Positions 3,284-35,136 of a stretch of 64,000 bases of DNA are shown here, in pieces (position 1 is the stretch's first letter; every line of letters starts with the position of its first letter). The stretch comes from Candidatus Poribacteria bacterium. Its GTDB lineage: Bacteria > Poribacteria > WGA-4E > PCPOR2b. The notes under the pieces are model-generated. The model was not told where the DNA came from and did no database searches. It was given only the letters and a program-made list of their open reading frames with translations. The position numbers were made by a program, and so were the translations under genes. The stretch is from NCBI GenBank assembly GCA_021295755.1, contig JAGWBT010000001.1:2349-66348 (forward strand), in the 5' to 3' direction.

Positions 3284-4855
3284 CTAGCCACCCGCCGGTG
3301 CAATCCGTTCTACCTCCAATCCTTCCGGGCGGAGAAAGTCCTTATAACGCGTCTGTATCTCGACACCATTGAGACTACGGGTAAAACCTGCTGTCTCTGT
3401 GAAATGCTTAGCTGTGATTTCGAGCGTATTTTCTCCTCGTTTAATGTTATCCAGTTCCAGTTTGTACCGGAACCAGTGAGCGGACATACCGAGGGGTGCT
3501 TGGAGGTGCATCGAACCCGCGAGTCTTACCGGTATGGTCAAGGCACGCTCGTCAGTAATTTCTGCTTCCTCCCACGGCAGTGCCATGCCATTGAAGCGGA
3601 ATTCAATATCATCCTCAATACAGAAGAAGGAAAAGCGAAGAGTGAGGATCGGTTTGCGCAGCTCGCTGTCGTTCTTGGCGCTTTCAAGGTCATCGGCAAC
3701 CCAGATGTTGACAGCAGCGGTTTCCCCTTCCTTAAGTTCCAATGGCAGCTGACGCTCCGGTGTGGTTGTTGGTTTGTCCGGCTCTCCCTCTCGTGGTTGG
3801 AGTAGATAACGCTTATCGCTCCGTGCATGAACTTCAGGATAAGCGACCTCTCGCAGAATCTGGTATTCCCTTTCGCTGAACGGCCAAGACAGATAGCCGT
3901 CATACAACCCAGCCCAGCCATCCCAGCTGAGTGTCTGTGCGAGCGCATTGTACATTTCAATACTTGGCAGACCAACCCGTTCATCATAGACGCGGCGGGG
4001 TGGCCGGTAGTAGGCTGCGGCACCGGCTGCATTAGCAGCATCGGGCAGCCACCGAGGTTTCGGCTGCGTCTCGGTCAGCACATACGGATCTTGTCCGACC
4101 ACATAATCGATGCTACCCTCCTTGAGCCATGTTTCCACATCCAGTCCCATCGACAGGTTTTTCTCTTTCTCAAGATCAACGCGCGCCATAACGGGAATCT
4201 CTCTTCCCTGTCGAGTTCCAATAGCGTTTGCCATCTCCCGAATTTCCGCCACGAAGCCATTCATCAACGAAATGTTTTTCTCAATCTCCGCCTGCTTGAA
4301 ATAATATGAATCGAACATAAAGTCCAACTCGATCCCATCAGCCTCATAGTCCTGCAGCATCTCCCTGAGCACAGCAAGTTTATCCTGTTGCACTAACTCA
4401 TGCGCAAAATCATAACACCATTCCGCCCTTCCTGCCTCTCCGATGCACACCTCGGCACCATGGTTCCATTTCAGCAAACCGCACCGCTCGCTCCCCGGCG
4501 GTGAACTTGCCTGTAACTTCAGGGAAGGAAATACGGTCAACCCCATTTCACGTCCGCGTTTGATGACCTCCTCTACTTGGTCAGTACCCATCTTTTTGGC
4601 TTCCTCCACCATTCGCATAATTCGCCAGTCGATGTAATTTTCCCAAACCTCCTTCATCTGCCCCACAACACGCCCAACGTTGCTGTTATGGAAGTACACA
4701 TCAGCGTATCCAAGTCCTAACACTAAGAGATCGACACCGGTGCCAAGTACCTCATCGACGGGCCATTGGAGTTTAGGGATGGAAGCCGGCGGTTCTATCC
4801 GCTTTGCGTTGAAATGATGGGCATCGTTATAATAAATCAGTCGGGGTTTCTGCAT
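3284..4855 (-). CDS. hypothetical protein, possibly a glycoside-hydrolase-like TIM-barrel enzyme
   Basis: 523-aa ORF. A DGIELDFMFDSYYF-type acidic motif resembles catalytic regions of GH-like (GHL10/YngK-type) TIM barrels. Otherwise unrecognised. Confidence 0.5.
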   Translation of the reverse strand: MQKPRLIYYNDAHHFNAKRIEPPASIPKLQWPVDEVLGTGVDLLVLGLGYADVYFHNSNVGRVVGQMKEVWENYIDWRIMRMVEEAKKMGTDQVEEVIKRGREMGLTVFPSLKLQASSPPGSERCGLLKWNHGAEVCIGEAGRAEWCYDFAHELVQQDKLAVLREMLQDYEADGIELDFMFDSYYFKQAEIEKNISLMNGFVAEIREMANAIGTRQGREIPVMARVDLEKEKNLSMGLDVETWLKEGSIDYVVGQDPYVLTETQPKPRWLPDAANAAGAAAYYRPPRRVYDERVGLPSIEMYNALAQTLSWDGWAGLYDGYLSWPFSEREYQILREVAYPEVHARSDKRYLLQPREGEPDKPTTTPERQLPLELKEGETAAVNIWVADDLESAKNDSELRKPILTLRFSFFCIEDDIEFRFNGMALPWEEAEITDERALTIPVRLAGSMHLQAPLGMSAHWFRYKLELDNIKRGENTLEITAKHFTETAGFTRSLNGVEIQTRYKDFLRPEGLEVERIAPAGG

Positions 4856-16594: not shown

Positions 16595-16717
16595 ATGTGT
16601 CCAACTCTTATCGTACTGGTTGCATCACAACGCAAAATGCACTCTGCAAAATGGTTGGTGATAGACACCCATGATACAAAAACCTAACAGAATTGCCATA
16701 ATCTCGTAACATCTCGC

Positions 16718-16726
16718 TGTTACAAT
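16718..16726 (+). promoter_or_regulatory. possible extended -10 promoter element (TGnTACAAT) upstream of second HEAT-repeat gene
   Basis: TGT-TACAAT at 16718-16726. No good -35 at 17 nt. Confidence 0.25.
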
Positions 16727-16859
16727 GACGTTTTCTTATGCCTGGTCTTTGAATGTTTGATCGCATCTTTGGCGTCCCACTATCTATAGGCTAGATGGTG
16801 ATGTCAGTGCGAAACCATCACCCTAAAGAAATCAAAAAAAATCAGGAGAACAAAACTTT

Positions 16860-18158
16860 ATGAAGAAACATGTAACAACCATACCTGCTATTCCTCAAGC
16901 AGATTCTGCCATCTTGAACCGTGCAAAGGATTTCTCGGGAACCATGCAGAAATTCGTCACTACACTAAGAACGGCGCTTTGGGCAGGACTAATACTATTA
17001 ATCTTGCTAATTGGATGCGAACCAAAACAGAAAATTGACCATTTGAAAGTTGGACGGCAACAACTGCTAAATTCAGGGCTAGCAGTTGATGCGATTAAGC
17101 ATCTGAAGAAAGCGGAAATAGATGAGCTAGACAAGGCTCCGGCTCACGCTTTGTTAGTTCTCGCATACACGCACGGTCTCTCAACAGAAGCCGCACAGGT
17201 ACAAGGACTGGAAGCTGAGTTCAAGAGCGAACGGACACAGCGGTTAGCTGCGCTAGGAAATGAGGAAATCGAGTACCTCCTCCAAATTTTGGTTAGGCGT
17301 TCTCGCCTCCAGAAAGATGCGATGCAAGTCGTGGTAGACAAAGGTGTAGACGCGCTTCCTGTCCTGATCGCTGCCCTAGGTCAGGCTGATTTTCTAAACC
17401 TACATGGCGACATCGTAGAGATGATGTATCAAATTGGAAGTGGTGGTATTAGCTTAATGGTTGACGCTATTCAGAACGCTGACATAACCACAGAGGTCAA
17501 AGTTGCGCTCGTACGCCTTATCGGACGGATCGGCGAACCGCAGGGACTTGACGATCTGGAGACAACTCGCAACGATACCGATGATGCCGGACTGCAGATG
17601 GAAATAAGTGTCACGCTCTATAGGCTCGGAAAGCATGAATATGCAACGGCAATCATTAAGGGATTGACTGACGATGATGTGAATGTACGTCGTGCCTCTG
17701 CACGGGCGATGACACACCTTAGCAATTACCCGGTTGGGCAACTCCTTAAAGTGCTTAAAGACACCGATGATCAGGTCGTTACCTATGCAGCGCAAGCATT
17801 TCAAAGGCAGCCGGATGCACAAGCGGTCGCAGCCCTCACCAGCGTCCTCACAGGCACAGCAGATAACGCTGCAAAACAGGCATCTTCGGAAGCACTGCGA
17901 ATCCATGCCCAGAAGAAGTTGACAAAGGGGTTGACCCCCCAGCTCATTAAAGCACTGATTTCGGGTGAAATTGGGAACGCAGAAGATCGACTACGCATTG
18001 TTCAACTGCTTCGAAAAGAACCGCTGATGAACCAAATTAAGGTGACCGCATTGGTCAATCCACAATTGGTATACGAACTTGATCAATACCTAAAACAAAC
18101 TGAGACACATGAGATAGTTAAAGGAGAGTTGAGACGGCTCCTTGCCCAAGTTGAGTGA
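16860..18158 (+). CDS. HEAT-repeat lipoprotein, paralog of 7298..8518
   Basis: Aligns along its length with the 7298 product (LKVGRQQLLNSGLAVDAIKHLKKAEIDE vs LEVGKNKLLNAGLAIEAVNHLKRAEIEE; VVDKGVDALPVL vs LVDKGADAAPVL; DDDVNVRRASARAM vs DNDVEVRRAAAQAM). Lipobox LLIGC. An alternative start at Met29 (MQKF...) would give a cleaner signal peptide. Confidence 0.75.
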   Translation: MKKHVTTIPAIPQADSAILNRAKDFSGTMQKFVTTLRTALWAGLILLILLIGCEPKQKIDHLKVGRQQLLNSGLAVDAIKHLKKAEIDELDKAPAHALLVLAYTHGLSTEAAQVQGLEAEFKSERTQRLAALGNEEIEYLLQILVRRSRLQKDAMQVVVDKGVDALPVLIAALGQADFLNLHGDIVEMMYQIGSGGISLMVDAIQNADITTEVKVALVRLIGRIGEPQGLDDLETTRNDTDDAGLQMEISVTLYRLGKHEYATAIIKGLTDDDVNVRRASARAMTHLSNYPVGQLLKVLKDTDDQVVTYAAQAFQRQPDAQAVAALTSVLTGTADNAAKQASSEALRIHAQKKLTKGLTPQLIKALISGEIGNAEDRLRIVQLLRKEPLMNQIKVTALVNPQLVYELDQYLKQTETHEIVKGELRRLLAQVE

Positions 18159-18462
18159 GAAATAACAGTTGTCAAATCTGAATCACAGTCTCTGTTGCCC
18201 CGTTTAGTGTAAGTTGAATACCTGATCAGTCTTTTGCAGAAATTTACGGCAGTTGATCGCGTTCACTGAAGTGTTGTTTCTTTAATCGATAGCCTCAAGC
18301 GTGTCGTCTGCCTCAATAATGAAAAGCGTAATCTGTAATCCACCGTTCCAAAATCTGCCTACAATCCCGTTGTTCCGGAATCGTTGAAAAACCAAATTCC
18401 ATGGCGTCAATCCTACCGTACTGACTGAGTTGCGAGGAACGGAAGGAGGTGGAGATCTACGA

Positions 18463-21285
18463 ATGGATACACGAACAGATCAGCGAATTCATAAACCACC
18501 GAATCAACTTCCCTCTAATCCATCTTTCATGTCCTGCCTTTTTCCGGTAGCGTTTCATGTGATGCTTATCTTCTCCGCTGTTGCCCTCAACTCCGCTTGG
18601 AGCCGATCTGGGAGTCTCCCCGTTGTTGAAATCCAGTACAGGCTAGATGGTGCAATCCTCAATTCAGGTTCGCTGTATGCGGATGTGACGCGTAAGACGC
18701 GGGTCCAAATTGGAAATACCGCGTCGCCTTATCAAATCCGCAAAAGCATTGAAGGGATATATACAACTGGTCTCTTTTCTCAGGTTACAGCAATCGAGAT
18801 GCCTATACAAGATGGGGTCCGATTGACGTTCGATCTCACTAGCAAGGTACGAATTGGAAAAATTGCGTTTAAGGGGAACAGTCTAAGCGATGATCTGCTC
18901 CTAGGCGTAGTGGTCTCTCACCCAAAAAAGGAATATTCCATGGAGATCGCAGAAGATGATCGGCGTAGAATTCTTGATTTATACAAAGATTACGGATATT
19001 TTCAGACAGAAATTCGTCTGAGCGCCTCTCCTAATCCCGACTCCTCACATCAGATGGATTTGTCATATAATATCTACGAGGGTAACCAAGCGCTTATTCA
19101 GGCCATCCGGTTTGAGGGTGTCAAATCAATTGATATTGAGAAGTTAGAAAAAAACACTAAAAGCAAAAAAGGTGAAATCTACCGCAAGCAATCCGTTGAT
19201 GCCGATACCAATCGCCTTCGAGAGTTATATCGGAAAAATGAGTATTTGACTGTAAAAGTCATACCCGACCCAGTCTACAATGACTCAACTGGTACAATTA
19301 TCCTTAATTACAAAATTATCGAGGGGAAAAAGATCAGAATCGAATTTATTGGCGACGGTATTGACGAATCGGAGCTTGAGGAAACTCTGGGTCTGTTCAA
19401 ACGGGATAGTTTTTCGGAGACGATTCTTAAAAGTACAGAACAACAAATTCTTCAAATCTATCAAGGGAAAGGGTATTACGAACCGATAGTGAGCCACAAG
19501 GTTGAAAGAATATCGGGACAAGAAGAAGTTATCTATTTCGAGATTCAATTGGGACAAGCCCCGCGAATTCGGAATATAAATTTCGATGGGAATACGGAAT
19601 TTTCAGATACAGTCTTGCTAGATCTGATGGAAACCCAGCCTCGCAGTCGATTTGTAGTCCCCGGATTTGGATGGCTATTCTCCAAAGGTATTTATAACCC
19701 AGCAACACTTGAAATAGACAAGCATGCACTGGAACTCTTTTACAAGAACCGTGGTTATCCAGATGTTCGGGTCGCGAGTGATGCCCCGGAGATCGATAAA
19801 GATAATAAGCTCATTTTGCATATAAAAATTAACGAAGGGGAACAGAAAATCGTAGACCAGGTTGCAATCGAAGGCGCGACAATCTTTGAAACGACTGAAT
19901 TATACACAAAACTAGACGCGCAAGCTGGGAAACATTACAGCGATGATATAACGAGCGATGATGAGCGCTATCTCGAATCCCTCTACAGTCAGGAGGGATA
20001 TATCTATGCACATATCAGCCATCACTATAATCCAGAAAGCCGCACGCTCACCTATCAGATTTCTGAGGGGGTTCAAGCCAAGTTTGGCAAATTCAAATTC
20101 GATGGGGATGGGAAAATCAAACTGCATGTTTTGCAGCGCGAATTTGAAAATCTCAGTTTGGTTGAAGGAGCAGTGTTTAACGAGGAGCGTTTATTTGCAG
20201 AATCTCGACGATGTTTATCGACTACCGGTCTCTTTACCGAGGTCGAAATTAAGGTGCCCGACCGATATGAGGAAAATACGGAAATTATTGATGTTGACGT
20301 AAACGTTGAGGTACGAAAACCAGGAGCAATCAGCGTCAGCGGGGGATATATCTCCTCTGAGGGTATTCGTGGAACATTAGGACTTGCCCACAACAACCTG
20401 TTCAAACGTAACATGAAAATTAGTGGGAAAGTTAGTCGGGGGACAAGAGGTAATCTGTATGAGATAACGTTGATTGAACCGTGGTTCAAACTGGCACCCC
20501 TCGATAAACTGATTGGACCCACAATAGGGACATTCCGTCTGTTCAACGATAATCTGGAGGAATACGAAGATATACGGGCGCGAGGTGGAACGGCAAACCT
20601 TGCCAAACGGCTTGGACAATACAGCAATCTTGCAGTACAGTACAAATCTCAAGATCTACGCGATCGTGAAGACCCGCCTAAAATTCAGACTACGGTGAGT
20701 AGTCTCGGTATCGAATTCCATCGAGACAGCCGAGATCATTTCCTGAACCCCAAGAACGGCTGGTTTAATGAAGCTGCGATTGAGTATGCCGGTGGATTTC
20801 TCAAAGGGCAAACCAGTTTCTTCAAATTTACAACCGATCATCGCTACTATTGGCAGTTTTGGGGAGATGCTGTCCTTGCCAGCGCAATTCGCCTTGGGTA
20901 TGAAAAAGGGTTGAGAGGAAACCGTGACCGGCAAATTATCTCCTTTGAGCGTTTCTATGCCGGCGGATCAAATACGGTTAGGGGATACCCGGAGCGGAGC
21001 CTTGGACCGGAAGATGAATTCGGCAATCATCGTGGGGATGTGTTATTCATTCTGAACACGGAACTCCGTTTTCCAATCTATAGGTTCATCGGTGGTGCGC
21101 TATTTTTGGATACAGGTAATGTATGGGATAAATTTTCGGATATCCAGGGAGACCTTCCACGTATAGCAATAGGGTCAGGTGTACGGTTAGATACTCCACT
21201 TGGACCTGCCCGCGTCGATATTGGGCTACCGGTAATGGAAGAATTTAAGCCCATCCTTTACCTGCAACTTGGCCAAGCATTTTGA
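18463..21285 (+). CDS. bamA: outer membrane protein assembly factor BamA (Omp85 family)
   Basis: Signal peptide; multiple POTRA-like repeats; C-terminal beta-barrel ending in aromatic residue (…LQLGQAF). Start chosen at ATG 18463 after GGAAGGAGGTGGA; the track ORF begins at 18430. Confidence 0.85.
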   Translation: MDTRTDQRIHKPPNQLPSNPSFMSCLFPVAFHVMLIFSAVALNSAWSRSGSLPVVEIQYRLDGAILNSGSLYADVTRKTRVQIGNTASPYQIRKSIEGIYTTGLFSQVTAIEMPIQDGVRLTFDLTSKVRIGKIAFKGNSLSDDLLLGVVVSHPKKEYSMEIAEDDRRRILDLYKDYGYFQTEIRLSASPNPDSSHQMDLSYNIYEGNQALIQAIRFEGVKSIDIEKLEKNTKSKKGEIYRKQSVDADTNRLRELYRKNEYLTVKVIPDPVYNDSTGTIILNYKIIEGKKIRIEFIGDGIDESELEETLGLFKRDSFSETILKSTEQQILQIYQGKGYYEPIVSHKVERISGQEEVIYFEIQLGQAPRIRNINFDGNTEFSDTVLLDLMETQPRSRFVVPGFGWLFSKGIYNPATLEIDKHALELFYKNRGYPDVRVASDAPEIDKDNKLILHIKINEGEQKIVDQVAIEGATIFETTELYTKLDAQAGKHYSDDITSDDERYLESLYSQEGYIYAHISHHYNPESRTLTYQISEGVQAKFGKFKFDGDGKIKLHVLQREFENLSLVEGAVFNEERLFAESRRCLSTTGLFTEVEIKVPDRYEENTEIIDVDVNVEVRKPGAISVSGGYISSEGIRGTLGLAHNNLFKRNMKISGKVSRGTRGNLYEITLIEPWFKLAPLDKLIGPTIGTFRLFNDNLEEYEDIRARGGTANLAKRLGQYSNLAVQYKSQDLRDREDPPKIQTTVSSLGIEFHRDSRDHFLNPKNGWFNEAAIEYAGGFLKGQTSFFKFTTDHRYYWQFWGDAVLASAIRLGYEKGLRGNRDRQIISFERFYAGGSNTVRGYPERSLGPEDEFGNHRGDVLFILNTELRFPIYRFIGGALFLDTGNVWDKFSDIQGDLPRIAIGSGVRLDTPLGPARVDIGLPVMEEFKPILYLQLGQAF

Positions 21286-21397
21286 ACGTGCGATCGACAA
21301 CACAAAGACCATCTTGATATCTTATTGGTTCTGCTTTAATTCGATGCAGACCTCTAACAGTTCTGGTTTACGTCAACAAGAAATAAGGAACGGACAG

Positions 21398-22288
21398 ATG
21401 AAATTGACACGTGAACAAATTGAAGAATTCAGAACTCAAGGGGTATTAATCGTCAAGAATGCCGTACCTGAACCCGGGTTAGATCCTGTGATTGCCGAAC
21501 TTGAGGCTTGGGTTGATAGACGTGCGTGTGAGCTACACACTGTGGGGAAAATTCAGGAACCGTATCCTGATGCTCCCTTCGAGATACGCTTTGGGCTCCT
21601 CTATAAACAGTGCAAAGAGGTGGGTGATGGACTCGACATCAGTATATCTCGCGGTCAAGCGATGTTTCAGTTTCTGCACAATAAGCATCTGCTTGATACA
21701 GTAGAATCACTCGTCGGTCCAGAAATCACCTGTAATCCTATTCAACATGCGCGGACTAAACCGCCGACAGCATACGATGGACACACTGGGCCATCATTCC
21801 ACGTCGTTCCTTGGCACCAAGATGCCGGCGTGATGATGCCCGAGGCTGAAGTTTCAAACATCGTAACTTGTTGGCTGCCTCTGGGAGATGCAACGATCGA
21901 AAGGGGATGTATGCAGGCGCTTCCCGGCGTGTTTGATCTTGGTTATCTGAGTCACTTCAAAGAAGAAGCCGCGACTGTTACGATCCGCCCTGAAGTGCTA
22001 CCGTCAGTCGAACCGATGGATCTCGTGTGTTCCAAAGGTGATGTCGTTCTATTGAATAAATTCACGCCACACCGTTCAGTTCCCAACGTCTCGGACAAAT
22101 GCCGGTGGTCCCTGGATCTGCGCTACCAGACCACGGGACATCACACGGGCAGAACAGCTTACCCAGAATTCATAGTACGCTCTCCAAGCAATCCTGCGAG
22201 TGTTTTGCGCGATTATGACGAATGGTCCCGGCTTTGGATTGATGCCCTTGAGAAGCCCAGAGGGGTAACGATGCACCGGACAGATTAA
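21398..22288 (+). CDS. phytanoyl-CoA dioxygenase (PhyH) family Fe(II)/2-oxoglutarate oxygenase
   Basis: MKLTREQIEEFRTQGVLIVKNAV N-terminus typical of PhyH family; HxD...H candidates (WHQDAG ... TPHRS). ATG 21398 preceded by AAGGAA; the track ORF starts at 21269 overlapping bamA. Confidence 0.7.
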   Translation: MKLTREQIEEFRTQGVLIVKNAVPEPGLDPVIAELEAWVDRRACELHTVGKIQEPYPDAPFEIRFGLLYKQCKEVGDGLDISISRGQAMFQFLHNKHLLDTVESLVGPEITCNPIQHARTKPPTAYDGHTGPSFHVVPWHQDAGVMMPEAEVSNIVTCWLPLGDATIERGCMQALPGVFDLGYLSHFKEEAATVTIRPEVLPSVEPMDLVCSKGDVVLLNKFTPHRSVPNVSDKCRWSLDLRYQTTGHHTGRTAYPEFIVRSPSNPASVLRDYDEWSRLWIDALEKPRGVTMHRTD

Positions 22289-22350
22289 TCGCGATTGCGG
22301 CTTCATAGGTTAATTTCCATCTAGATCAACGTAAATAGCGGAGGAAATTC

Positions 22351-23238
22351 ATGTTCAATTTTTGTGGTGCATGGCCCGCTTTGGTCACACCTTTCACTGC
22401 CGAAGATAAAGTGAATGTACCGGTGTTACAAGAGCTAGTAGAGTATTTGCTAGATAAAGGGGTAGGAGGATTTTACGTCTGCGGAGGCACCGGAGAAGGG
22501 CTATTCATGGTGCCAGAAGAACGAAAGTTGGTCACTGAAACCGTGGTTGACCAAGTAGATGGGCGCACACCTGTCATTGCGCATGTTGGTAGCATGATTG
22601 TCGGTGATGCGGTCCAGTTAGCACAACACGCACAAGAGGCAGGAGCTGCGGGAATAAGCAGCGTTATCCCACCGATGTTTCAGAACAGTGAAAGTCTCTA
22701 TACTTACTTCGAGCGAGTTGGAGCTGCTGCACCTGAAATACCGCTGCTTACGTACATATTCGGTGGCCCCACCGACGCCGTCGCGCTGATGCGGCGGTTG
22801 ATGGATATACCGACCGTTGCCGGTGCGAAGTACACGGGACCCAATATGTACGAATTTAGAGAGATTGTAGAGCTGCGAAGAGATAACTGGAGGATTTTTT
22901 CGGGTATGGATGAGCAGTGTATTTACGCTGCGATGCAGGGCGCGTGCGGCAATATCGGTTCAACCCTCAATTATAACCCCGGAATCTATCGTGAGATACA
23001 CAACAACTACGGAAACGGGAATATCGCTAAGGCGCAGGAACTCCAAGTGTATGCCAATAAAATAACCCGTGTGCTGTTTTCCTTCGGTTTCTTTGGTGCG
23101 ATCAAAGAGGTGATGTGCATGTTGGGCTTCGACTGTGGGAAACCGCGGCTGCCTCAACTTCCATTCGCTGTGGAGAAGCGAGAGGAGTTAAAAGCGGAAT
23201 TAGAGTCCATCGATTTCTTCACCGTGGCAGAAATGTAA
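22351..23238 (+). CDS. dihydrodipicolinate synthase/N-acetylneuraminate lyase (DapA) family enzyme
   Basis: ALVTPF motif near N-terminus, GGTGEG motif, Schiff-base lysine region (AGAKYTG). 295 aa. Confidence 0.8.
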   Translation: MFNFCGAWPALVTPFTAEDKVNVPVLQELVEYLLDKGVGGFYVCGGTGEGLFMVPEERKLVTETVVDQVDGRTPVIAHVGSMIVGDAVQLAQHAQEAGAAGISSVIPPMFQNSESLYTYFERVGAAAPEIPLLTYIFGGPTDAVALMRRLMDIPTVAGAKYTGPNMYEFREIVELRRDNWRIFSGMDEQCIYAAMQGACGNIGSTLNYNPGIYREIHNNYGNGNIAKAQELQVYANKITRVLFSFGFFGAIKEVMCMLGFDCGKPRLPQLPFAVEKREELKAELESIDFFTVAEM

Positions 23239-23259
23239 TTCTTGGTCCTCTCCTCAGAA

Positions 23260-24087
23260 TCAGCTGAGCCAACACTCTGGCGTATAGGCTTCACGCAAGA
23301 ACATCTTTTTACGCGCGGGATCTGCGCGTTCAATCCATTCCGCCGGAATTTCTTGGGTGTAGCGATGTGGTGGTCCTATCTCCTTGAAAATGTCGATTAG
23401 GAAAAGTCGATACGCCTGCGGGGAGTCCAGCGACTTCGGTTCAACACCGTGAAACATCCGAGCGTTAAGATAAACCATGCTTCCCGGCGGAAGTTCTAGG
23501 TGTCGCACCGCAAGTTTACGACCCGCAACCTCGTCAAATTCTCCCGCTAGAAGCCTTTCCTGTGTAACATCCGCCGTTGGTGGAACCCGATGACTCCCCG
23601 GGATAACTGAGAGGCTTCTGTCGCCCCGTGTGAACCCATTAGGGTAGTAGAGTATCTGAATGTACCATTTATCCCTTTCGGCAAGGTTTATCGGGTTCTC
23701 ATGGCGCCAATGGTGGTGGTCTTGGTGGAAACCGAGCCGTCCTACGCCGCGAGGGGCGATGTTCATCGCGGAATGGCAAAAGTGATAATCGGGACCGATA
23801 GTCGCCTGGAGCAGCGCCGTAACAAGCGGTGCGTCGATCAGTCGATCCGCCCACGGTCCCCTGTCATTCCACGGTCTGACGAAGTATACGGTTGGATCGC
23901 TCGGCTTGCCGTCTTGGTCCTCCAAAGTGCGGAGATATTCACGGGCACCAGCCAGGTTGAGCACCTCATCAGTCAATGCCGAAAGCGCTTCCTCCGTAAA
24001 AACTTCGGGTATCGCAACGTAGCCGTCCCTATGAAAATCCTCAAGATTTTCTTGCGACGGCGCATCGATGTGAAATATCGGACTCAT
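23260..24087 (-). CDS. phytanoyl-CoA dioxygenase (PhyH) family protein, second copy
   Basis: N-terminus (FHRDGYVAIPEVFTEEA) and His-rich core (HQDHHHW ... HGVEP) typical of PhyH. Start taken at ATG 24087 (RBS GGAGA), avoiding the 68-nt overlap implied by the track start 24168. Confidence 0.7.
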   Translation of the reverse strand: MSPIFHIDAPSQENLEDFHRDGYVAIPEVFTEEALSALTDEVLNLAGAREYLRTLEDQDGKPSDPTVYFVRPWNDRGPWADRLIDAPLVTALLQATIGPDYHFCHSAMNIAPRGVGRLGFHQDHHHWRHENPINLAERDKWYIQILYYPNGFTRGDRSLSVIPGSHRVPPTADVTQERLLAGEFDEVAGRKLAVRHLELPPGSMVYLNARMFHGVEPKSLDSPQAYRLFLIDIFKEIGPPHRYTQEIPAEWIERADPARKKMFLREAYTPECWLS

Positions 24088-24100
24088 GATTGATTCTCCA

Positions 24101-25129
24101 TTAATTAAGGGGTAGGGCAACCGGCGTATGCGCCTGTGCAGACTGGCGACAGGCGAGACATAACTCAATCACGTGCTGGGCATCCTCAATGGTCAAATCC
24201 GGGTCTGTTTTGTTCTGGCAACATTCCACCCAATGGGTCATTTCGTCGAGTAGGTTGTTATTTTGGATTCGGTAAAAATTACTGACCCCCTCTTTTGTGA
24301 AAAGCGTTCCTTCATACACGCTTTGCTGCGTCCGAATCGCACCTGTTGTACCGACTAACTCAACCTCATAAGCGGGCAGCCTAAAACCGTCAACGGAAAA
24401 ATAGATGTCAATCGAACCCATGACCCGATTCTCAAATCGTAGGATAATCTTACCATTGTCCATAAAGGGTGAGCGATCTGAAAGGTAATTGTCATATTCT
24501 GCATAAACCCTTGTTACTTCTGAACCTGCGAACCATCTAATCACATCGGCAGCATACCAAATCAGAGACAGTTCTGGTCCCCCTTCTGCTTCCTCCCAAT
24601 ACCAATCATCCTTTGGAAAACTATTTATGTTTCCGTGTTGATGCAACGCCCGAATCGAAATCAGTTCGCCAATCGCCCCGTTTTTGAAACGCTGATATGC
24701 TTCGCGGATACCCCCGTCGAAGCGCTCCGTTGTGCCGGAGGTGGCAATCACTCCGTGCTCCCGCACCGCTTTTACGATACGTTCCGCTGCATCGACGCTA
24801 GTCGCCATCGGCTTGGCGATGTAGATAGCCACACCCAAAGGGGCAACCTGTTCGACAAGACGAACCGCTTCGGTGTTCTTGGCACAGATACAAACCGCAT
24901 CCAACTCCTTCTCTTGAATCATCTCGACCGGGTCATGATACACTTGGAGACCATACGCTTCAGCAAATTCTGCTGGTGTTTTCCCGAGGGAGGTAGAAAT
25001 CAGGTTTGAATCATAGTCCAAATCTGCGCACGCCACTAGTTCGGCGTTGGAAATACTGCTCAGACAATTCGCGAAGGCATGGGGCCAATAAACACTCTGG
25101 AGTCCAACAATACCTGCTCTGATGCCCAT
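24101..25129 (-). CDS. Gfo/Idh/MocA family NAD(P)-dependent oxidoreductase
   Basis: N-terminal Rossmann motif (IRAGIVGLQSVY...), EKP motif region (AKPMAT). 342 aa. Confidence 0.8.
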   Translation of the reverse strand: MGIRAGIVGLQSVYWPHAFANCLSSISNAELVACADLDYDSNLISTSLGKTPAEFAEAYGLQVYHDPVEMIQEKELDAVCICAKNTEAVRLVEQVAPLGVAIYIAKPMATSVDAAERIVKAVREHGVIATSGTTERFDGGIREAYQRFKNGAIGELISIRALHQHGNINSFPKDDWYWEEAEGGPELSLIWYAADVIRWFAGSEVTRVYAEYDNYLSDRSPFMDNGKIILRFENRVMGSIDIYFSVDGFRLPAYEVELVGTTGAIRTQQSVYEGTLFTKEGVSNFYRIQNNNLLDEMTHWVECCQNKTDPDLTIEDAQHVIELCLACRQSAQAHTPVALPLN

Positions 25130-25167: not shown

Positions 25168-25818
25168 CTAAATCAGATGTAACCAATCGGCTAGTAGGAA
25201 GTCAACCCGTTGAATGAGCAGAGATACACGACCCATCACCGTGTTACCAAATGCTGAACCGAAGCCAATCATCAGAAAGACAATACCAATCTTTGAAACG
25301 CCGCCAACCACGCCCCGATGCTCCACAGAAAAGAAGAAGTAGGTCAACGTTGACATCACACCGATAAGCATAAGAATGACACCAAAGATTTGAAACGGAC
25401 CTAACTCGCCCGCATGAATCTGTGCAAATGGAGCCAACGTCCCATGCACCTGCTGAAAGATGTCAGCTCGCATTACATTTGGAATTGCTAAACCGGATCC
25501 TACCCCGATGAGGATAGCAATTGGATACCGAATTAACCACCCGTGTGTCGGGGCAAGACGTGTAAAGAATAACGCGCCAATACCGATTGGAATAAGCCTC
25601 AACAAGCCAACCCACTGCTGCTGCGTGACAGCTTGTGCAATGGGCTTCCACGCGAACGGTATAAAACCTTGGTGGATTGTAAGCACAATACCGTAGCCCA
25701 CCGAGACCCCCACAAACAGGTGTTCCGCAAATCGGTAAAACGGATTATCTCGATACAGAAAACTAAAGATGCAGAGTGTAAGTAGTGCAGCCACCCAGGT
25801 ACCAATCAATTCCGCCAT
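25168..25818 (-). CDS. hypothetical polytopic membrane protein (about 6 TM), operon member 4
   Basis: 216 aa, strongly hydrophobic helices throughout, no recognisable family. Gap of 17 nt to the upstream gene. Confidence 0.6.
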   Translation of the reverse strand: MAELIGTWVAALLTLCIFSFLYRDNPFYRFAEHLFVGVSVGYGIVLTIHQGFIPFAWKPIAQAVTQQQWVGLLRLIPIGIGALFFTRLAPTHGWLIRYPIAILIGVGSGLAIPNVMRADIFQQVHGTLAPFAQIHAGELGPFQIFGVILMLIGVMSTLTYFFFSVEHRGVVGGVSKIGIVFLMIGFGSAFGNTVMGRVSLLIQRVDFLLADWLHLI

Positions 25819-25835
25819 GTATGAAACCTCCTGTT

Positions 25836-26651
25836 TTATTCAGCTTGACGCCGTTGGATAAAGAAGGCGATATTACCTAGAATCACAAGCCCGACAACCA
25901 GTAGATGTGCGAAGGATTGGATGCTCATGCCTTCGGTCCCTTTTGCGGGTTTCCCAATTAGCTTTTCATACTCTGCAGCGCCTAAGAGGCCGGGCATCAA
26001 ACCGATCAGCTGCTTTGTCTGTAAGTACGGGTACATCTGCGACACAATCACCCCAGTCACACCCGCGGCTATCTGCTGGTTATACCTTGTGTTTGTATAA
26101 ACAATCCACCATTCCGTGGAGCTGCCCGATGCTAGGTCGAGAACCAGATCAACCTGATCATAATTTTTGATATCCGTCATCATGGGAATTTCCGCGAGTT
26201 GGGTTTCGGCATAATCGGCTTCAAAAACGGAATCGATTGCCGTACCCATTCCTAGAAGCACCTGCGTTGCGCCCGGCCGAAAGCCCAAATAGACGTAATC
26301 TTCACCATAAACCGCTCCCGCTTCGGCGGCGGTCTCCGACAACATTCCATCTCCCAACGTTGCCCCTTCCGCCAGAAGCGTCATGCCAATAATCCGAATC
26401 TTGTTCCGAAAACAGTGGTGTATCACCGCTTTTGCCATCGGGTGGAGTTCCGCTAACGACGAGGGGCCGTAGTTAAATCCAATCATGAGGGTTGAACCGG
26501 CGGGCAGCGCTTCAATATAGTCGTAGGTACTACGCGTCGGTTGTGAAACAGTGATAGGAAAACTGACTGACAGCAAGGAAGGAATAATTACCGCCAATGC
26601 AACCAAAATGAAGACAATTCGCCGATCTATGTTCATTAGTTTTTCGATCAT
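25836..26651 (-). CDS. hypothetical bitopic membrane protein (N- and C-terminal TM helices flanking a soluble domain), operon member 3
   Basis: 271 aa. N-terminal TM (IVFILVALAVIIPSLL), C-terminal TM (LLVVGLVILGNIAFFIQRR). The C-terminal region resembles that of the 27336 product. 3-nt gap to the upstream gene. Confidence 0.6.
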   Translation of the reverse strand: MIEKLMNIDRRIVFILVALAVIIPSLLSVSFPITVSQPTRSTYDYIEALPAGSTLMIGFNYGPSSLAELHPMAKAVIHHCFRNKIRIIGMTLLAEGATLGDGMLSETAAEAGAVYGEDYVYLGFRPGATQVLLGMGTAIDSVFEADYAETQLAEIPMMTDIKNYDQVDLVLDLASGSSTEWWIVYTNTRYNQQIAAGVTGVIVSQMYPYLQTKQLIGLMPGLLGAAEYEKLIGKPAKGTEGMSIQSFAHLLVVGLVILGNIAFFIQRRQAE

Positions 26652-26654
26652 TTT

Positions 26655-27305
26655 TTAATCTCCTTCTACGCCTCCGAGATATGAACGTTCAATACCCAAG
26701 ATGATACGAATTGACTGAGAAATCACACCGAGGCTGATGCCAAGAATAATACCCCGTCGTGCGGAGAGATTCGGATTATCTAAAATCCACTGCCGCGCTG
26801 CAGAAGGCAAGTTCTCTCCAAATGGCATTATCGTGTTCCAGATGAGATCCCCAACGGGGGCATTCCCAACCATGACAACTAGTGCCGCAGCAAGTAGCAG
26901 GGTCGCCTCAAGGGTGCGGGCCCGAAAAGCACGATAGGCAGCAGAGGCGATAAAAAATGCGAGAAGTGAAAACATCGTTGCATCCATTGGCACTTGCACG
27001 TTTTCAAACAGCCACACAAAAGCCGGATGCCTTTGGCCAAACGGAATGCCAATCGCAACCATAACGATCATTCCAATGAAGACCAGAAAGCTATATTGCC
27101 AATATTCACTGCGCCGACGGATGCGGACCCAGTGGGTCTGTATCAAGGTTGCGATAGCTAGTACAAGTGCGAATGGACCGATAACCAATGCCCAATCGAT
27201 GACCTCCTTGTTGAGCCCTTGAGAAAATGGGTGCGGGCTAAATTCGGTAAGTGCCATCACAATACCAAATGCGAAACAAAGGATTAACGGAACTTGTCGT
27301 CTCAT
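26655..27305 (-). CDS. hypothetical polytopic membrane protein, operon member 2
   Basis: 216 aa (same length as 25168..25818), 5-6 predicted TM helices, no recognisable motifs. 30-nt gap to the upstream gene. Confidence 0.6.
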   Translation of the reverse strand: MRRQVPLILCFAFGIVMALTEFSPHPFSQGLNKEVIDWALVIGPFALVLAIATLIQTHWVRIRRRSEYWQYSFLVFIGMIVMVAIGIPFGQRHPAFVWLFENVQVPMDATMFSLLAFFIASAAYRAFRARTLEATLLLAAALVVMVGNAPVGDLIWNTIMPFGENLPSAARQWILDNPNLSARRGIILGISLGVISQSIRIILGIERSYLGGVEGD

Positions 27306-27335
27306 AACACCTCCTGAAGCCTGAAACGTAAAACG

Positions 27336-28232
27336 CTACTTAACTCGCTGGAAGAAGGTCGTCATCCAAGTAATCCCGAAAAGTTCGAGAATGACGCCAA
27401 TCACGATAGCACCAAAAATCATCACCTTGCCGTAATCTTGCCCCTTGAGACTACCGAGCAGCATCGGTTCTCGAGACAGGTACGCGCTAGCTGCGTATAG
27501 TTCTTCACCAATCAGTGTATAGTCACACGCGGCGATGAAGAACGGTAGTTGGTGCTCCTTGTCGGTTCCGGCGATCTGGATTGCCCCGATGGAATTGCCG
27601 GTTTCCGCCAAAATCAACGATTCAGCAAAAAACGAACCTTGCAGGAAAACTGCCGCCGGCTCTTCCCGAACCATCATTCCATCAACACCCGCAGCATAAG
27701 CGAATTGACTTTCTGTGAGGAAGAAGATGTTCTCCTCATTATAGGCATCAGGTCGTCCTTCATTGAGATAAGCGGTTCGCACCATCTCCCGAACTACATT
27801 CATTACAATAGGATCATTGCACGGGACTCGCAGCGGCGTTTCATAATCCGCGGTCTTCTGTGCCACTTGGCTGAGGATGTTCATACTCGCGATGGTTGCA
27901 ACGTTGCTGACACCTCCCAAGCCAAGGATGTACATAATCGAACGTCCCATCTCCGTCGCTCGACCAATTGCCTCATCTACCGCTTCAAGTCCGGGAATAC
28001 GACGGATAAACAGTTCCTTCCCACTTCGAGCATGGTAGATACAATAGACTACTGTGGCTGAGTACAGGAGCACGGCGAGGAAAATCCATATTTTGGCGGT
28101 GTCAAACAATCGGGTATCTTCGGTTGTTGTTGCTTCTTGTGCAAAGGCATTAAGGCCACACCCTAGCACAAAAACCAGTATAACTAACCCTTGAACCACC
28201 GGTGATGGACAAAAGATTTTTTGCCCTTTCAT
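27336..28232 (-). CDS. hypothetical membrane/lipoprotein-like protein with soluble domain and C-terminal TM, operon member 1
   Basis: Start chosen at ATG 28232 (MKGQKIFCPSPVVQGLVILVFVLGCG, lipobox-like, RBS GGAGG); the track ORF extends to 28286. C-terminal TM (VMIFGAIVIGVILELFGITWMTTFF). Confidence 0.6.
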   Translation of the reverse strand: MKGQKIFCPSPVVQGLVILVFVLGCGLNAFAQEATTTEDTRLFDTAKIWIFLAVLLYSATVVYCIYHARSGKELFIRRIPGLEAVDEAIGRATEMGRSIMYILGLGGVSNVATIASMNILSQVAQKTADYETPLRVPCNDPIVMNVVREMVRTAYLNEGRPDAYNEENIFFLTESQFAYAAGVDGMMVREEPAAVFLQGSFFAESLILAETGNSIGAIQIAGTDKEHQLPFFIAACDYTLIGEELYAASAYLSREPMLLGSLKGQDYGKVMIFGAIVIGVILELFGITWMTTFFQRVK

Positions 28233-28405
28233 ATTGTAACCTCCAGTCTTTTGGTTCGATGCGTTTGTTTCCATGGATGAGAACATAATTGATAGCTGCG
28301 ATTATAGCACCGTATCGCAACGCTGTCAAAAGGAAACAGGATACAACAACTTCTCTGAATGGATATTGATCCGCCTTTAAGAGGTCCTGTTAAAATAAGC
28401 CACAA

Positions 28406-31557: not shown

Positions 31558-32295
31558 TCACCGTTCTCGGCGAATGCATTGGACTGCGGCTTGCAGGCTC
31601 TTGGCGTTGGTATATTGGGAGATGATTTTCTTTAATTCCGTTAGCGTGGCGTTTTGTAAGGTTTGAACCTCCTGAATTAGCAGCGGCAAAGCCCGCACCA
31701 CATTGTCCACAATAGTCACACCAGCCGCCTGGGCAGTCCGCGACATTGGGTTGAGGTCAACCGTTATCACTGTTTTACCCATTTTCTGCAGTGCTTCACA
31801 GCGATCGCCATCCTCAAGTGGAACGAACACGACATCGGCACGAGAGATACCTTCTGGATGGACGAACTTCCGATTTGAATCAATAAACGAAAGTTGTGCC
31901 TCCGTTGTAGGCATCAATACATGAACCGCCCCATGCTTCTCGAGATGCTCTCGTATCGCAACCTCCCGTTCTTTTGAGGTGTGGAAAATGTTCACCTCCA
32001 ACGGGGCTTTGAGGACATTAGAGAAGGCCACCAATTCACCTGGCACCAGTGCCGCAACATTACCGTTAACGGAGATTACGGGATGTTCGGCGTCCAGCAG
32101 GATGGCTGCCCCGGCGCGGATTGCATCCATAGCGAAGGGATGTGTTTTTTCTCCGATGAGGTAGTCAAACGCTTCGCCACGCCCATGTGCCATCAATCCG
32201 TGGATGGAGGTCACTCCACTCTCTACGCCGGCGACTATTGTATCCCTCAGCTTCAACGATGCATACCGGGGATGACTTTCAGGAACATCGCTCAT
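31558..32295 (-). CDS. 4-phosphopantoate--beta-alanine ligase (archaeal-type phosphopantothenate synthetase, DUF137)
   Basis: N-terminal SHPRYASLKLRD...GLMAHGRGEAFDYLIGEKT matches the pattern I recall for the PPS/DUF137 family (HPRY.SL...G..AHGRGEAFDYL.GE.T). Overlaps the upstream GHMP kinase gene by 4 nt. Confidence 0.6.
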   Translation of the reverse strand: MSDVPESHPRYASLKLRDTIVAGVESGVTSIHGLMAHGRGEAFDYLIGEKTHPFAMDAIRAGAAILLDAEHPVISVNGNVAALVPGELVAFSNVLKAPLEVNIFHTSKEREVAIREHLEKHGAVHVLMPTTEAQLSFIDSNRKFVHPEGISRADVVFVPLEDGDRCEALQKMGKTVITVDLNPMSRTAQAAGVTIVDNVVRALPLLIQEVQTLQNATLTELKKIISQYTNAKSLQAAVQCIRRER

Positions 32296-33131
32296 AATAG
32301 CCTGCCTTTTTCACCACTAGAGAGTTGTGTTTCGGTCGCGCCTTCAAAAGGGTGAGTGCTAAACACTGCATTACCCAACATAATCATAGACGCAATCCCG
32401 CCCGCATCCTCGATTTCACGGATGGTTTCTTGCACGCGCGTATCCTCTAATAATCCACTATTGAGGGAGAATTGTTTGGACAATTGAATACAGGCGTTAA
32501 AGTCAACTGACTCCGCTTTCGTGAGTATCTCTAAAGCCTGCAATGTTTCATCTGCCGCTCTGTTGATACGCTCTCTCCGCTCGGCGCTTTCGAGGATGGT
32601 TTTCGTCTGGATAGAACTAAAATATCGGTAATAGACGGGTTGAGCTGGAATCGGCAGTCGCTCCGCAGCAAGGGGATAACCTCTCTTCAATTTAACGAGA
32701 CAGCCACCGTGGTATTGGGCGCATACATCTCCTAACCCTGTTCGATTTTCCACTTCCGCCACATGGGCGGTCATCGCCAATTCTTCCTCAGATTTGCCTA
32801 ATTCTAGTAAGGCGTTAAGTGCGTAGGTCGTAGCGAGCGAAGCTGCTCCACTTAGTCCAAAACCGCATCCGAGCGGTAAGGGCGAATCGATTTCTATCCG
32901 CATCGGCTGAGATGTCAGTTTCTGGACAACGGATACAACGGTAGGGAAACGAATCTCGCTGCCGTTAAACTGGACAGTGGTCTGGCTACTATGCTGGGCA
33001 ACCGTTACAACAACGCCTTCTGTAATGGTAAACCCCATGCCGAGCGAGTGCATCTTGGTTGCTTCTAGGTGAGGAATGATCTTGAATACGCAAGAGAGGT
33101 TGCCGGGTGCGAATGCTTTCGCCTGTGTCAT
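32292..33131 (-). CDS. GHMP-family kinase, probable pantoate kinase
   Basis: GHMP ATP-binding motif PLGCGFGLSGAASLA. About 280 aa, the typical PoK size. Translationally coupled (ATGA overlap) to the PPS-like gene, as in archaea. Confidence 0.6.
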   Translation of the reverse strand: MTQAKAFAPGNLSCVFKIIPHLEATKMHSLGMGFTITEGVVVTVAQHSSQTTVQFNGSEIRFPTVVSVVQKLTSQPMRIEIDSPLPLGCGFGLSGAASLATTYALNALLELGKSEEELAMTAHVAEVENRTGLGDVCAQYHGGCLVKLKRGYPLAAERLPIPAQPVYYRYFSSIQTKTILESAERRERINRAADETLQALEILTKAESVDFNACIQLSKQFSLNSGLLEDTRVQETIREIEDAGGIASMIMLGNAVFSTHPFEGATETQLSSGEKGRLL

Positions 33132-34128: not shown

Positions 34129-35136
34129 TCACTTTTCAATTTTCAGCCTGCCCCATATCGTAGTGATTTTTCGTCTCGGTTGGACGCTTTGAGGTGGTAA
34201 TCCCGTATCATACGCTTCTACGGTTGAAAGCGCTCGCCGCAGCAATCCCTGCGAGCCTCCGATAGCATAAACCTTCCCGTCGATAGCGCTAGTAGCAAGG
34301 TTTCCTCTTGCGGTAGGCATATCCGGCGCCTTCGTCCAGGTATCTGTCACCGGATCATAGACTTCCACGTTCCCAAGTCCATCACGGCCGTTTTGTGTTC
34401 CTCCAACGGCAAGAATCTTACCGCTGACAGCAGCGGCTGAAAACCCCCAACGTGGCGTGGGCATGCCTTGCCGCGGTGCCCAAGTATTTGTCGCTGGGTC
34501 GTAGACTTCGACGGTGCCAAGGCTTTCTAGCCCATTTGGTGTTCCCCCAATGGCGTAAATTTTCCCACTGACCACAGCAGTTGACAGCCCCCACCTTGGC
34601 GTAGGCATATCCGCTCCTCGCGCCCATGTGTTCGTCGTTGGATCGTACACCTCGACGGTCGTCAGCGCAACTTTATCGCCCCCAATGGCATAGATTTTCC
34701 CGTTGACGGCGCTGCTAGACAGCCCCCATCGTGGGGTAGGCATATCTGCTTTTCGCGTCCAACTGTCCGTCGTAGAATCGTATGCTTCGACGACAGCAAA
34801 CATCCCGCCAAGGTTTCCCCCGCCGATCGCATAAATGTGATTAGCCACCGAACTCGTTGAAAATCCCTCTCGCCGGGTAGGCATGTCAGTTTTCTTAATC
34901 CATCTGTCTGTCAGAGGATTATATTCTTCCGTCCTAGATAGAAGCGTGTTTCCGACTCTTCCTCCAATGGCATAAATCTTCTCTCCCACTGTACTGGTGG
35001 ATAGTGCAAATCTGGCGGTCGGCATATCCGCTTTTTGGCTCCATTTTCCGTCCTTGGCAAGACTCAATGGAGGTATAATCCAGCAAATCGCAGTGAATAT
35101 GAACACAGTTTTAAGCGCCAATCTACTAAGAATCAA
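34129..35136 (-). CDS. secreted Kelch-repeat (beta-propeller) protein
   Basis: Signal peptide, then 6 tandem about-48-aa repeats of MPTPRWG.S...V.GKIYAIGG. Confidence 0.8.
   Translation of the reverse strand: MILSRLALKTVFIFTAICWIIPPLSLAKDGKWSQKADMPTARFALSTSTVGEKIYAIGGRVGNTLLSRTEEYNPLTDRWIKKTDMPTRREGFSTSSVANHIYAIGGGNLGGMFAVVEAYDSTTDSWTRKADMPTPRWGLSSSAVNGKIYAIGGDKVALTTVEVYDPTTNTWARGADMPTPRWGLSTAVVSGKIYAIGGTPNGLESLGTVEVYDPATNTWAPRQGMPTPRWGFSAAAVSGKILAVGGTQNGRDGLGNVEVYDPVTDTWTKAPDMPTARGNLATSAIDGKVYAIGGSQGLLRRALSTVEAYDTGLPPQSVQPRRKITTIWGRLKIEK

Follow-up and report, generated by a model that had tools for sequence, protein, structure and literature searches.

A conserved four-gene membrane block of mostly uncultured bacteria as a candidate module of an undescribed envelope system

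The core of the Rnf and Na+-NQR complexes contains two six-TM subunits of ~200 aa in opposite orientation (RnfA/RnfE and NqrD/NqrE). RnfG and NqrC consist of a TM anchor and a periplasmic alpha/beta domain, and NqrA and RnfC carry a hybrid-barrel. In the Tol-Pal and TonB-ExbBD systems, a polytopic core in the inner membrane is combined with a bitopic subunit that has a long, variable, periplasm-directed domain. The ABC-2 auxiliary pair GldF/GldG comprises a permease-like subunit with ~6 TM helices and a periplasmic alpha/beta protein with a TM helix at both ends.

We analyzed four genes, g1 to g4, on the minus strand of a 64-kb stretch of Poribacteria DNA (hereafter called the window). g1 (27336..28232) encodes a DUF6754 protein of 298 aa, g2 (26655..27305) a polytopic protein of 216 aa with ~6 TM helices and an N-in/C-in topology, g3 (25836..26651) a protein of 271 aa with a TM helix at each end and a Rossmann-like domain in between, and g4 (25168..25818) another polytopic protein of 216 aa with ~6 TM helices, probably N-out. 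As had been predicted, the genes are consecutive and separated by 30, 3, and 17 nt, in exact agreement with the list of open reading frames. Upon inspection of the sequence, each gene is preceded by a GGAGG-type ribosome-binding site. We propose, with a probability of about 50%, that g1-g4 constitute the membrane module of a larger, undescribed envelope system for energized coupling or transport.

In architecture, the g2/g4 pair together with g3 is similar to the Rnf/Na+-NQR core. A weak biotin/lipoyl-like hybrid-barrel signal at the N-terminus of c4, a protein encoded next to the block in many other phyla (see below), recalls NqrA/RnfC. However, no Rnf-Nqr Pfam match was found in g2, g4, or ~50 relatives of each, their alignments contain no invariant or near-invariant Cys for an Fe-S site, and the operon is devoid of flavin- or Fe-S-binding subunits. 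Tol-Pal and TonB-ExbBD share the plan of a core with an ectodomain, and here, too, one energizing set possibly serves several modules. Yet, MotA_ExbB (PF01618) was matched neither by g2 and g4 nor by their relatives, and unlike in TonB/TolA, the conserved part of g1 is predicted to be cytoplasmic while its ectodomain is dispensable. In contrast to the MotA/ExbB/TolQ stators, no subunit of g1-g4 has an invariant acidic residue in a predicted TM helix; the invariant intramembrane residues found here are H249 and N260 in the C-terminal TM helix of g3, not Asp or Glu. The layout of GldF/GldG resembles that of g3 and its ~6-TM neighbor, but the operon and its surroundings lack an ABC ATPase, and matches to ABC2_membrane and ABC_transp_aux were below significance. 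With regard to ABC or binding-protein-dependent transporters in general, g1-g4 gave no ABC_tran, BPD_transp, or SBP match, and none of 80 genome loci has an ATPase gene inside the block.

The 2-hydroxyacid dehydrogenase gene and g1 are separated by 119 nt, and this spacer contains a promoter-like site (28301..28329, minus strand). The site reads TTGACA-17 nt-TATAAT with a TG extension, matches the sigma-70 consensus in 12 of 12 positions, and is the only such 12/12 site between 23000 and 29600. Hence, g1-g4 could be transcribed independently. The reading frame of g1 is open back to 28286 (316 aa). The start is most likely the ATG at 28232, giving the 298-aa product, because a GGAGG is located 7 nt upstream, separate gene calls on identical contigs also yield 298 aa, and the promoter ends at 28301, which would leave the ATG at 28286 with a very short leader and without a ribosome-binding site. 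An Rfam search of the whole window returned no RNA family.

The synteny of the four genes in other genomes, set as a test in the original prediction, turned out to be strong. The tblastn searches covered 80 genome loci; almost all of those with sufficient length to display the block retain the order g1-g2-g3-g4, and the intergenic gaps have medians of 9, 2, and 2 nt. Overall, the block recurs in this order in hundreds of species, mostly of uncultured bacteria. The 80 loci span at least 10 phyla: Poribacteria, WOR-3, Zixibacteria, Eisenbacteria, Cloacimonadota, Ignavibacteria, Latescibacteria, Fermentibacteria, Planctomycetota, Armatimonadota, Nitrospirales, and others. Judged from the sequences, the arrangement is far beyond chance, and the data show that g1-g4 are one conserved operon. 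Some genomes have two or three tandem copies of g1-g4, and the positions of the copies are orthologous between genomes. In such arrays, a module shares 57-92% identity with the module at the same position in another genome, as against only 35-60% with the adjacent modules of its own array, and this holds for g1, g3, and g4 alike. The products thus co-diverge as a set, which is expected of subunits in one complex, and we infer that g1-g4 may form a physical complex in the inner membrane. The set is conserved at 35-60% identity over at least ten phyla and at least 591 genome stretches, a degree typically seen in core cellular machinery. Almost all of its carriers (FCB, PVC, Poribacteria, Armatimonadota, and others) are uncultured, which is probably why the system has escaped study.

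Of the four proteins, g1 alone belongs to a described family. It matches Pfam DUF6754 (PF20539) with 411 bits (E = 2e-123; profile positions 3-257 of 257) and thereby clears the gathering score of 27 bits; all 78 long g1 homologs scanned match this profile as well. DUF6754 is a domain of unknown function to which the Pfam entry assigns none, and a literature search found no paper mentioning DUF6754 or PF20539. The original description of g1 as lipoprotein-like, with a soluble domain and a C-terminal TM helix, was right about the latter two but incomplete: the order is signal peptide, 14-residue linker, TM helix (45-69), alpha/beta domain, and TM helix (256-284), and a lipobox-like motif occurs in only ~5% of 150 g1 relatives. 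In the AlphaFold (AF2) model, a generic Rossmann-like domain is clamped by the two TM helices. This domain is predicted to face the cytoplasm; topology was assigned from the AF2 models of g1 and g3, the charge bias of the loops, and the signal peptides. Foldseek with the g1 model gave no matches at E ≤ 1e-3, and a PDB profile search with g1 found nothing at E ≤ 10.

The core of g1 is 50-60% identical among 150 cluster representatives. The search gave 2225 representative matches, and members of the family were found in at least 591 genome stretches. The g1 homologs are 289-1276 aa long. A minority of the ectodomains contain FN3, a PQQ-like propeller, or a coiled coil, and most are without a Pfam domain. 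In the window, the linker EATTTEDTRLFDTA (28095..28136, minus strand) stands in place of an FN3-like ectodomain of ~92 residues, which is kept in relatives with 96-98% identity. Residues 1-45 of window g1 align with 1-45 of the relative P0412 and residues 43-298 with 137-392 (96% identity). The alignment indicates that the ectodomain is lost in the window strain through an in-frame deletion. As it is dispensable here, a relay to the ectodomain cannot be the core function. When ten short relatives of g1 were looked up by cluster, all names returned were those of MAGs, with no cultured organism among them.

For the other three proteins, the predicted membrane anatomy was borne out. Topology, charge bias, and reading of the sequence agree on ~6 TM helices in g2, with the conserved motifs ATMFSLLAFFIASAAYRAFRAR and GIERSYLGG at the cytoplasmic face, and its relatives comprise 6150 cluster representatives at E ≤ 1e-3. 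g4 likewise has ~6 TM helices, and its conserved motifs are FSFLYKDNPFYKFAEHLFVG, YFFFSKEHKG, and FGASFGYTVMAR. The soluble domain between the terminal helices of g3 proved to be alpha/beta, and the AF2 model shows a generic Rossmann-like domain held by these two helices. It is predicted to be periplasmic, that is, on the membrane face opposite to the g1 domain. The invariant residues of the soluble domains of g1 and g3 lie at the C-terminal ends of the strands. As this is the usual ligand crevice of such folds, the models make binding of a small ligand or a partner probable for both domains.

The failure to recognize any family, noted in the original prediction, thus applies to g2, g3, and g4 and not to g1, although the g1 family is itself a DUF. 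None of g2, g3, and g4 had a match to Pfam or NCBIfam that reached the cut-off. Pfam scans of all members of the g2, g4, and g3 alignments (52, 50, and 54 relatives) gave scattered hydrophobic noise (best, TMD0_ABC in 9/52). Profile searches of the PDB found nothing at E ≤ 10 for g2 and g4 and two chance-level matches for g3. Automatic JGI names of relatives (YhaH/DUF805 and YeaQ/YmgE) were not reproduced by the Pfam and NCBIfam scans. No PADLOC anti-phage model matched g1-g4 or the block-associated proteins c13, c4, and MutL-like ATPase described below. Sensitive searches, which could have refuted the original view, thus placed g1-g4 in no known transporter, enzyme, or defense family. As g2 and g4 were covered by sequence-based searches, they may still have a known transporter fold. 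We regard as an unlikely alternative a general secondary or binding-protein-dependent transporter that is specific to no pathway, with g2/g4 as permease, g3 as tethered periplasmic binding domain, and the cytoplasmic domain of g1 as RCK/KTN-like regulatory ligand sensor.

The equal length of g2 and g4 and a supposed likeness between the C-terminal anchors of g1 and g3 had suggested that the block is a duplicated two-gene module. In this reading, a unit of an anchored Rossmann-like protein and a 6-TM protein would have been duplicated, with the second copy in the opposite membrane orientation. We found no homology in either pair: BLASTP of g1 vs. g3 and g2 vs. g4 gave nothing (E > 0.2), and the hhalign profile-profile probability was 0.8% and 0.5%, respectively, so the anchor likeness is not significant either. 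At the level of sequence, internal duplication is rejected. Structural matches common to g1 and g3 are expected even without homology since no alpha/beta fold is commoner than the Rossmann-like one. The shared 216 aa are a coincidence in view of the family length ranges, which are 203-271 aa (median 216) for g2 and 199-547 aa (median 223) for g4, where the upper values are longest-ORF calls and some are over-extended in GC-rich genomes. Hence, a duplication origin is doubtful.

In many other phyla, the block adjoins the gene of a MutL/GlmL-like actin-fold (ASKHA) ATPase and those of two uncharacterized proteins, c4 (375 aa, very conserved) and c13 (~118 aa, partly hydrophobic). The order c13-MutL-c4 is found immediately upstream of g1 in 13 genome loci and, in addition, in L090/L091. 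Of the metagenome loci anchored on c4, 45 extend for at least 3 kb downstream; 20 of these contain g1, in 16 cases directly after c4. MutL stands before c4 in 35 of 47 loci. Apart from c13, MutL, g1-g4, and housekeeping genes, c4 has no recurring neighbors. The set c13-MutL-c4 also occurs without g1-g4 nearby, and adjacency is limited to a minority of loci. The window itself contains no MutL-like, c4, or c13 gene; hence, the coupling may not hold for the Poribacteria organism studied here. The MutL-like neighbor (~600 aa) matches Pfam MutL (PF13941) at 1e-123, which places it in the superfamily. Against the NCBIfam equivalogs, it stays below the cut-offs, with 222 vs. 475 bits for GlmL and 214 vs. 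600 bits for Or-4. It shares its Pfam family with GlmL/MutL, the accessory protein of glutamate mutase, but unlike GlmL, it has no adjacent mutase genes (glmS/glmE), its neighbors being c13, c4, and g1-g4. PDB searches with c4 (profile) and the MutL-like protein (phmmer) found nothing meaningful. Literature searches for PF13941 and for GlmL with ASKHA returned no papers, and GlmL alone gave irrelevant text matches.

One c13-MutL-c4 set may adjoin one to three paralogous modules, whose main difference lies in the g1 ectodomain. On these grounds, we propose an energized transmembrane coupling or transport device of the cell envelope. In the proposed module, g1 would be type-I-like, with an ectodomain of variable length, or none, outside and the highly conserved Rossmann-like domain in the cytoplasm, and g3 would mirror it with its domain in the periplasm. 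The MutL/GlmL-like ATPase, c4, and c13 would be the cytoplasmic partners. Through g2 (N-in) and g4 (probably N-out), with about six TM helices each, events at the cytoplasmic domain of g1 would be passed on to the periplasmic domain of g3 and, where present, to the g1 ectodomain. A more specific version, in which a shared engine of the MutL/GlmL-like ATPase, c4, and c13 drives one to three paralogous modules with interchangeable g1 ectodomains as a new, phylum-spanning class of energized transmembrane transducer or translocase without a homolog among characterized systems, is put forward tentatively and is clearly less probable than the general reading. Neither g2-g4 nor the operon nor its link to MutL/c4 is represented in any library searched. 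If the ATPase link and the swapping of ectodomains are true, the system would be an envelope machinery of a new kind, and several large "hypothetical" families in environmental and sponge-symbiont genomes would obtain a function.

Alternatively, g1-g4 might be a membrane-bound enzyme or translocase for an envelope precursor (a phosphosugar, a nucleotide-sugar, or a lipid-linked compound), which the g1 domain would bind in the cytoplasm and g3 would receive in the periplasm. However, no catalytic motif of a glycosyltransferase or isomerase was found, no such Pfam or NCBIfam match exists, the structural matches have identities of 6-12%, and no glycan-synthesis genes recur beside the block. We regard this reading as improbable.

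The original prediction had tied the block to the flanking catabolic genes. Its neighbors vary in Poribacteria and in other phyla, however, and together with the perfect sigma-70 promoter, these varied flanks leave a link to the local cluster unsupported. In Poribacteria, the block lies between TRCF/DUF3108 and a peptidase (L005), is flanked by ABC transporter/Ldh_2 and EamA/MoaC (L007), or is located beside aroK/aroB (L012-L020), and contexts in other phyla differ again. At the level of gene neighborhood, this shows that g1-g4 occurs independently of the catabolic genes. Co-regulation with the upstream 2-hydroxyacid dehydrogenase is rejected because a consensus promoter intervenes and the context is not conserved. 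An uptake or processing complex dedicated to the 2-hydroxyacid dehydrogenase/Gfo-Idh-MocA/PhyH pathway is very improbable and largely refuted by the comparative context, for although all genes of the window cluster share one strand, g4 lies close to the Gfo/Idh/MocA gene, and a 90%-identical relative (L009) has the same flanks, this context is not shared by L005, L007, L010-L020, and other phyla, the block has its own promoter, and its family of at least 591 genome stretches has varied neighbors. We do not think that g1-g4 serves the adjacent dehydrogenase/dioxygenase pathway as its dedicated permease, and in annotation, the block should not be labeled as a transporter of the neighboring catabolic cluster. 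The gap between g4 and the Gfo/Idh/MocA gene is 38 nt long and without a terminator-like site; hence, local read-through from g4 into this gene is possible.

The four membrane-protein genes lie on the minus strand of the window at 27336-28286 (g1), 26655-27305 (g2), 25836-26651 (g3) and 25168-25818 (g4). The ORF listing bears out four consecutive genes with gaps of 30, 3 and 17 nt, and every ORF is preceded by a GGAGG-type ribosome-binding site. For g1, the start is most likely the ATG at 28232, which gives a product of 298 aa. A GGAGG lies 7 nt upstream of this ATG, separate gene predictions on identical metagenome contigs also arrive at 298 aa, and a promoter-like site (28329-28301, minus; TTGACA-17-TATAAT with a TG extension, 12/12 match) leaves the ATG at 28286 a very short leader and no ribosome-binding site.

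The g1 product matches Pfam DUF6754 across the whole model (E = 2e-123). For g2, g3 and g4, neither Pfam nor NCBIfam gave a family, and scanning about 50 varied relatives of each one at a time did not change this. The proteins had been called unrecognisable; this holds for g2-g4 and fails for g1, the family of which is itself a DUF. Profile searches against all PDB sequences returned nothing for any of the four, PADLOC gave no match, and DUF6754 (PF20539) is not mentioned in the literature searched. Beyond the placement of g1 in a DUF, the proteins show no defining feature of the known systems tested. We therefore rate the set as fitting none of these kinds of system; g2 and g4 could still have a known transporter fold.

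A search with g1 of 1.84 billion cluster representatives gave 2225 matches, the best 150 of which share 50-80% identity over the DUF6754 part and are 289-1276 aa long. When one genome was scanned for each GTDB species, at least 591 stretches proved to encode a g1 relative. The best 80 of these loci belong to Poribacteria, WOR-3, Zixibacteria, Eisenbacteria, Cloacimonadota, Ignavibacteria, Latescibacteria, Fermentibacteria, Stahlbacteria, Planctomycetota, Armatimonadota, Nitrospirales and others. Synteny in other genomes, the lack of which would have counted against the original prediction, was confirmed: among these 80, tblastn shows g1 to be followed directly by g2, g3 and g4, in this sequence, in nearly all sufficiently long loci. 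The intergenic gaps across loci have medians of 9, 2 and 2 nt. 'Orphan' DUF6754 genes with no adjoining g2-g4 occur at L027, L047 and L078; the MAG that contains L078 also has the complete locus L032.

In several genomes, the whole set is present in two or three tandem copies (genome loci L043, L052, L053, L058, L061, L072, L076 and L081; metagenome loci L117, L120, L159, L160 and L164). A given copy is 57-92% identical to the copy at the same position in another genome and only 35-60% identical to its neighbours in its own array, for g1, g3 and g4 alike. Array position is thus orthologous between genomes; hence, the multiplication is old and the copy order conserved, and the four subunits diverge together as old paralogous sets, which is the behaviour expected of cognate partners in one complex.

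The proposal of a duplicated two-gene module finds no support in sequence comparison. Neither g1 and g3 nor g2 and g4 show homology by BLASTP, and hhalign probabilities are 0.8% and 0.5%, respectively. That g2 and g4 both have 216 aa is coincidental given the family ranges of g2 (203-271 aa) and g4 (199-547 aa), the upper values of which are longest-ORF calls. The architectural parallel of g1 and g3 persists: both models (pLDDT 88.8 and pTM 0.80 for g1; 92.7 and 0.86 for g3) run from a TM helix through a helix and six strand-helix units to a second TM helix. The orientation is apparently opposite, and an ancient inverted duplication is possible but unsupported.

A Sec-type signal peptide is present in g1 and most of its relatives, the relatives carry extracytoplasmic-type N-terminal domains, and positive charges come right after the first TM helix in g1 and flank g3 at both ends. 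From these features combined, we infer that the soluble domain of g1 would be cytoplasmic and that of g3 periplasmic. For g2, the predicted topology is clearly N-in, with six TM segments; g4 is probably N-out. Rossmann-like folds bind ligands at strand C-terminal ends and where the next helices begin. When alignments are set against the models, the invariant residues of both soluble domains fall at these places, and each domain probably holds a ligand or partner site.

Extra length in g1 relatives is always N-terminal; in a minority, the extension contains FN3, PQQ-like propeller or coiled-coil segments, whereas most extensions have no recognisable domain. Relatives 96-98% identical over the g1 core carry an FN3-like domain of about 92 residues between signal peptide and first TM helix. 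The window g1 keeps both of these elements, and comparison with the homologues P0391, P0412 and P0394 shows an in-frame deletion of the ectodomain, replaced by a 14-residue linker (28095-28136, minus). The ectodomain is therefore accessory to the role of the conserved core.

Three further genes lie directly upstream of g1 in 13 non-Poribacteria loci, and also in L090 and L091. They encode c13 (about 118 aa, partly hydrophobic), a MutL/GlmL-like ATPase (about 600 aa; Pfam MutL at 1e-123, far under the NCBIfam GlmL equivalog cut-off) and c4 (about 375 aa, mean column identity 63% among members, no family). The link was tested in reverse by scanning metagenome contigs with c4. Among 47 informative loci, 35 have MutL ahead of c4, and g1 is present in 20 of the 45 c4 loci that extend 3 kb or more downstream (immediately downstream in 16 of the 20). 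The only other recurring c4 neighbours in the metagenome loci were housekeeping genes. None of the three genes was found within the 64-kb window. Gene neighbourhood suggests that the presumed g1-g4 complex works together with an actin-fold ATPase module, one set of which can adjoin several membrane modules. The partner module itself is duplicated as MutL-c4-c13-MutL-c4 in L095, L103, L121, L134 and L166. The first c4 copy there gives a two-piece profile match (e.g., L095 6390-6716 and 6741-7694), suggesting a divergent or split paralogue.

Thus, g1-g4 is a conserved operon, present irrespective of the genes around it, and its four products co-diverge as a set; these products presumably form one complex. 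Models and topology predictions would place Rossmann-like domains on both membrane faces, with about twelve further TM helices. We favour, with a probability of about 0.5, an undescribed coupling or transport system associated with the envelope, of which g1-g4 would be the membrane module. Known here from sequences and models, the set is widespread, strongly conserved and of unusual modular architecture. A general transporter with tethered binding and regulatory domains is a weaker candidate, and an enzyme or translocase acting on a phosphosugar or lipid-linked precursor is slightly less probable still. The pathway-specific uptake system of the original prediction is very improbable: the 38-nt, terminator-free gap between g4 and the next gene leaves room for read-through in this lineage, but the flanks in other Poribacteria are TRCF/DUF3108, ABC transporter/Ldh_2 or aroK/aroB, and these unconserved flanks and the consensus promoter ahead of g1 argue against linking the role of g1-g4 to the local 2-hydroxyacid dehydrogenase, Gfo/Idh/MocA and PhyH genes.

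The supposed catabolic cluster consists of a PhyH pair and DHDPS-family, Gfo/Idh/MocA, 2-Hacid_dh, Amidohydro_2 and UxuA-like genes; the two PhyH-family dioxygenase genes lie on opposite strands on either side of the DHDPS-family gene (21269-24168). A few kb from the g1-g4 block is an outer-membrane biogenesis cluster (10010-21285). It encodes, in order, a TamB/YhdP-like protein of 2194 aa (10010-16594), a HEAT-repeat protein (16860-18158) and a BamA/Omp85 protein of 951 aa that contains POTRA domains (18430-21285). A 523-aa ORF (3284-4855, minus) has no Pfam match at E ≤ 1e-5. Adjacent overlapping genes (31558-33131, minus) carry PF02006 (PPS_PS, the archaeal kind of phosphopantothenate synthetase) and a GHMP-kinase N-terminal domain. 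The pair is reminiscent of the pantoate kinase/PPS route by which archaea make coenzyme A, which would be unusual in a bacterium. Kelch repeats make up nearly all of a 335-aa protein (34129-35136, minus), which has six Kelch_1 stretches (E = 7e-71); such eukaryote-like repeat proteins are often noted in sponge symbionts. Finally, an M6 (immune inhibitor A-like) peptidase (43576-45702) ends in a FlgD_ig/CHU_C domain, a type-IX-secretion-style sorting domain, which is a curious find in Poribacteria.
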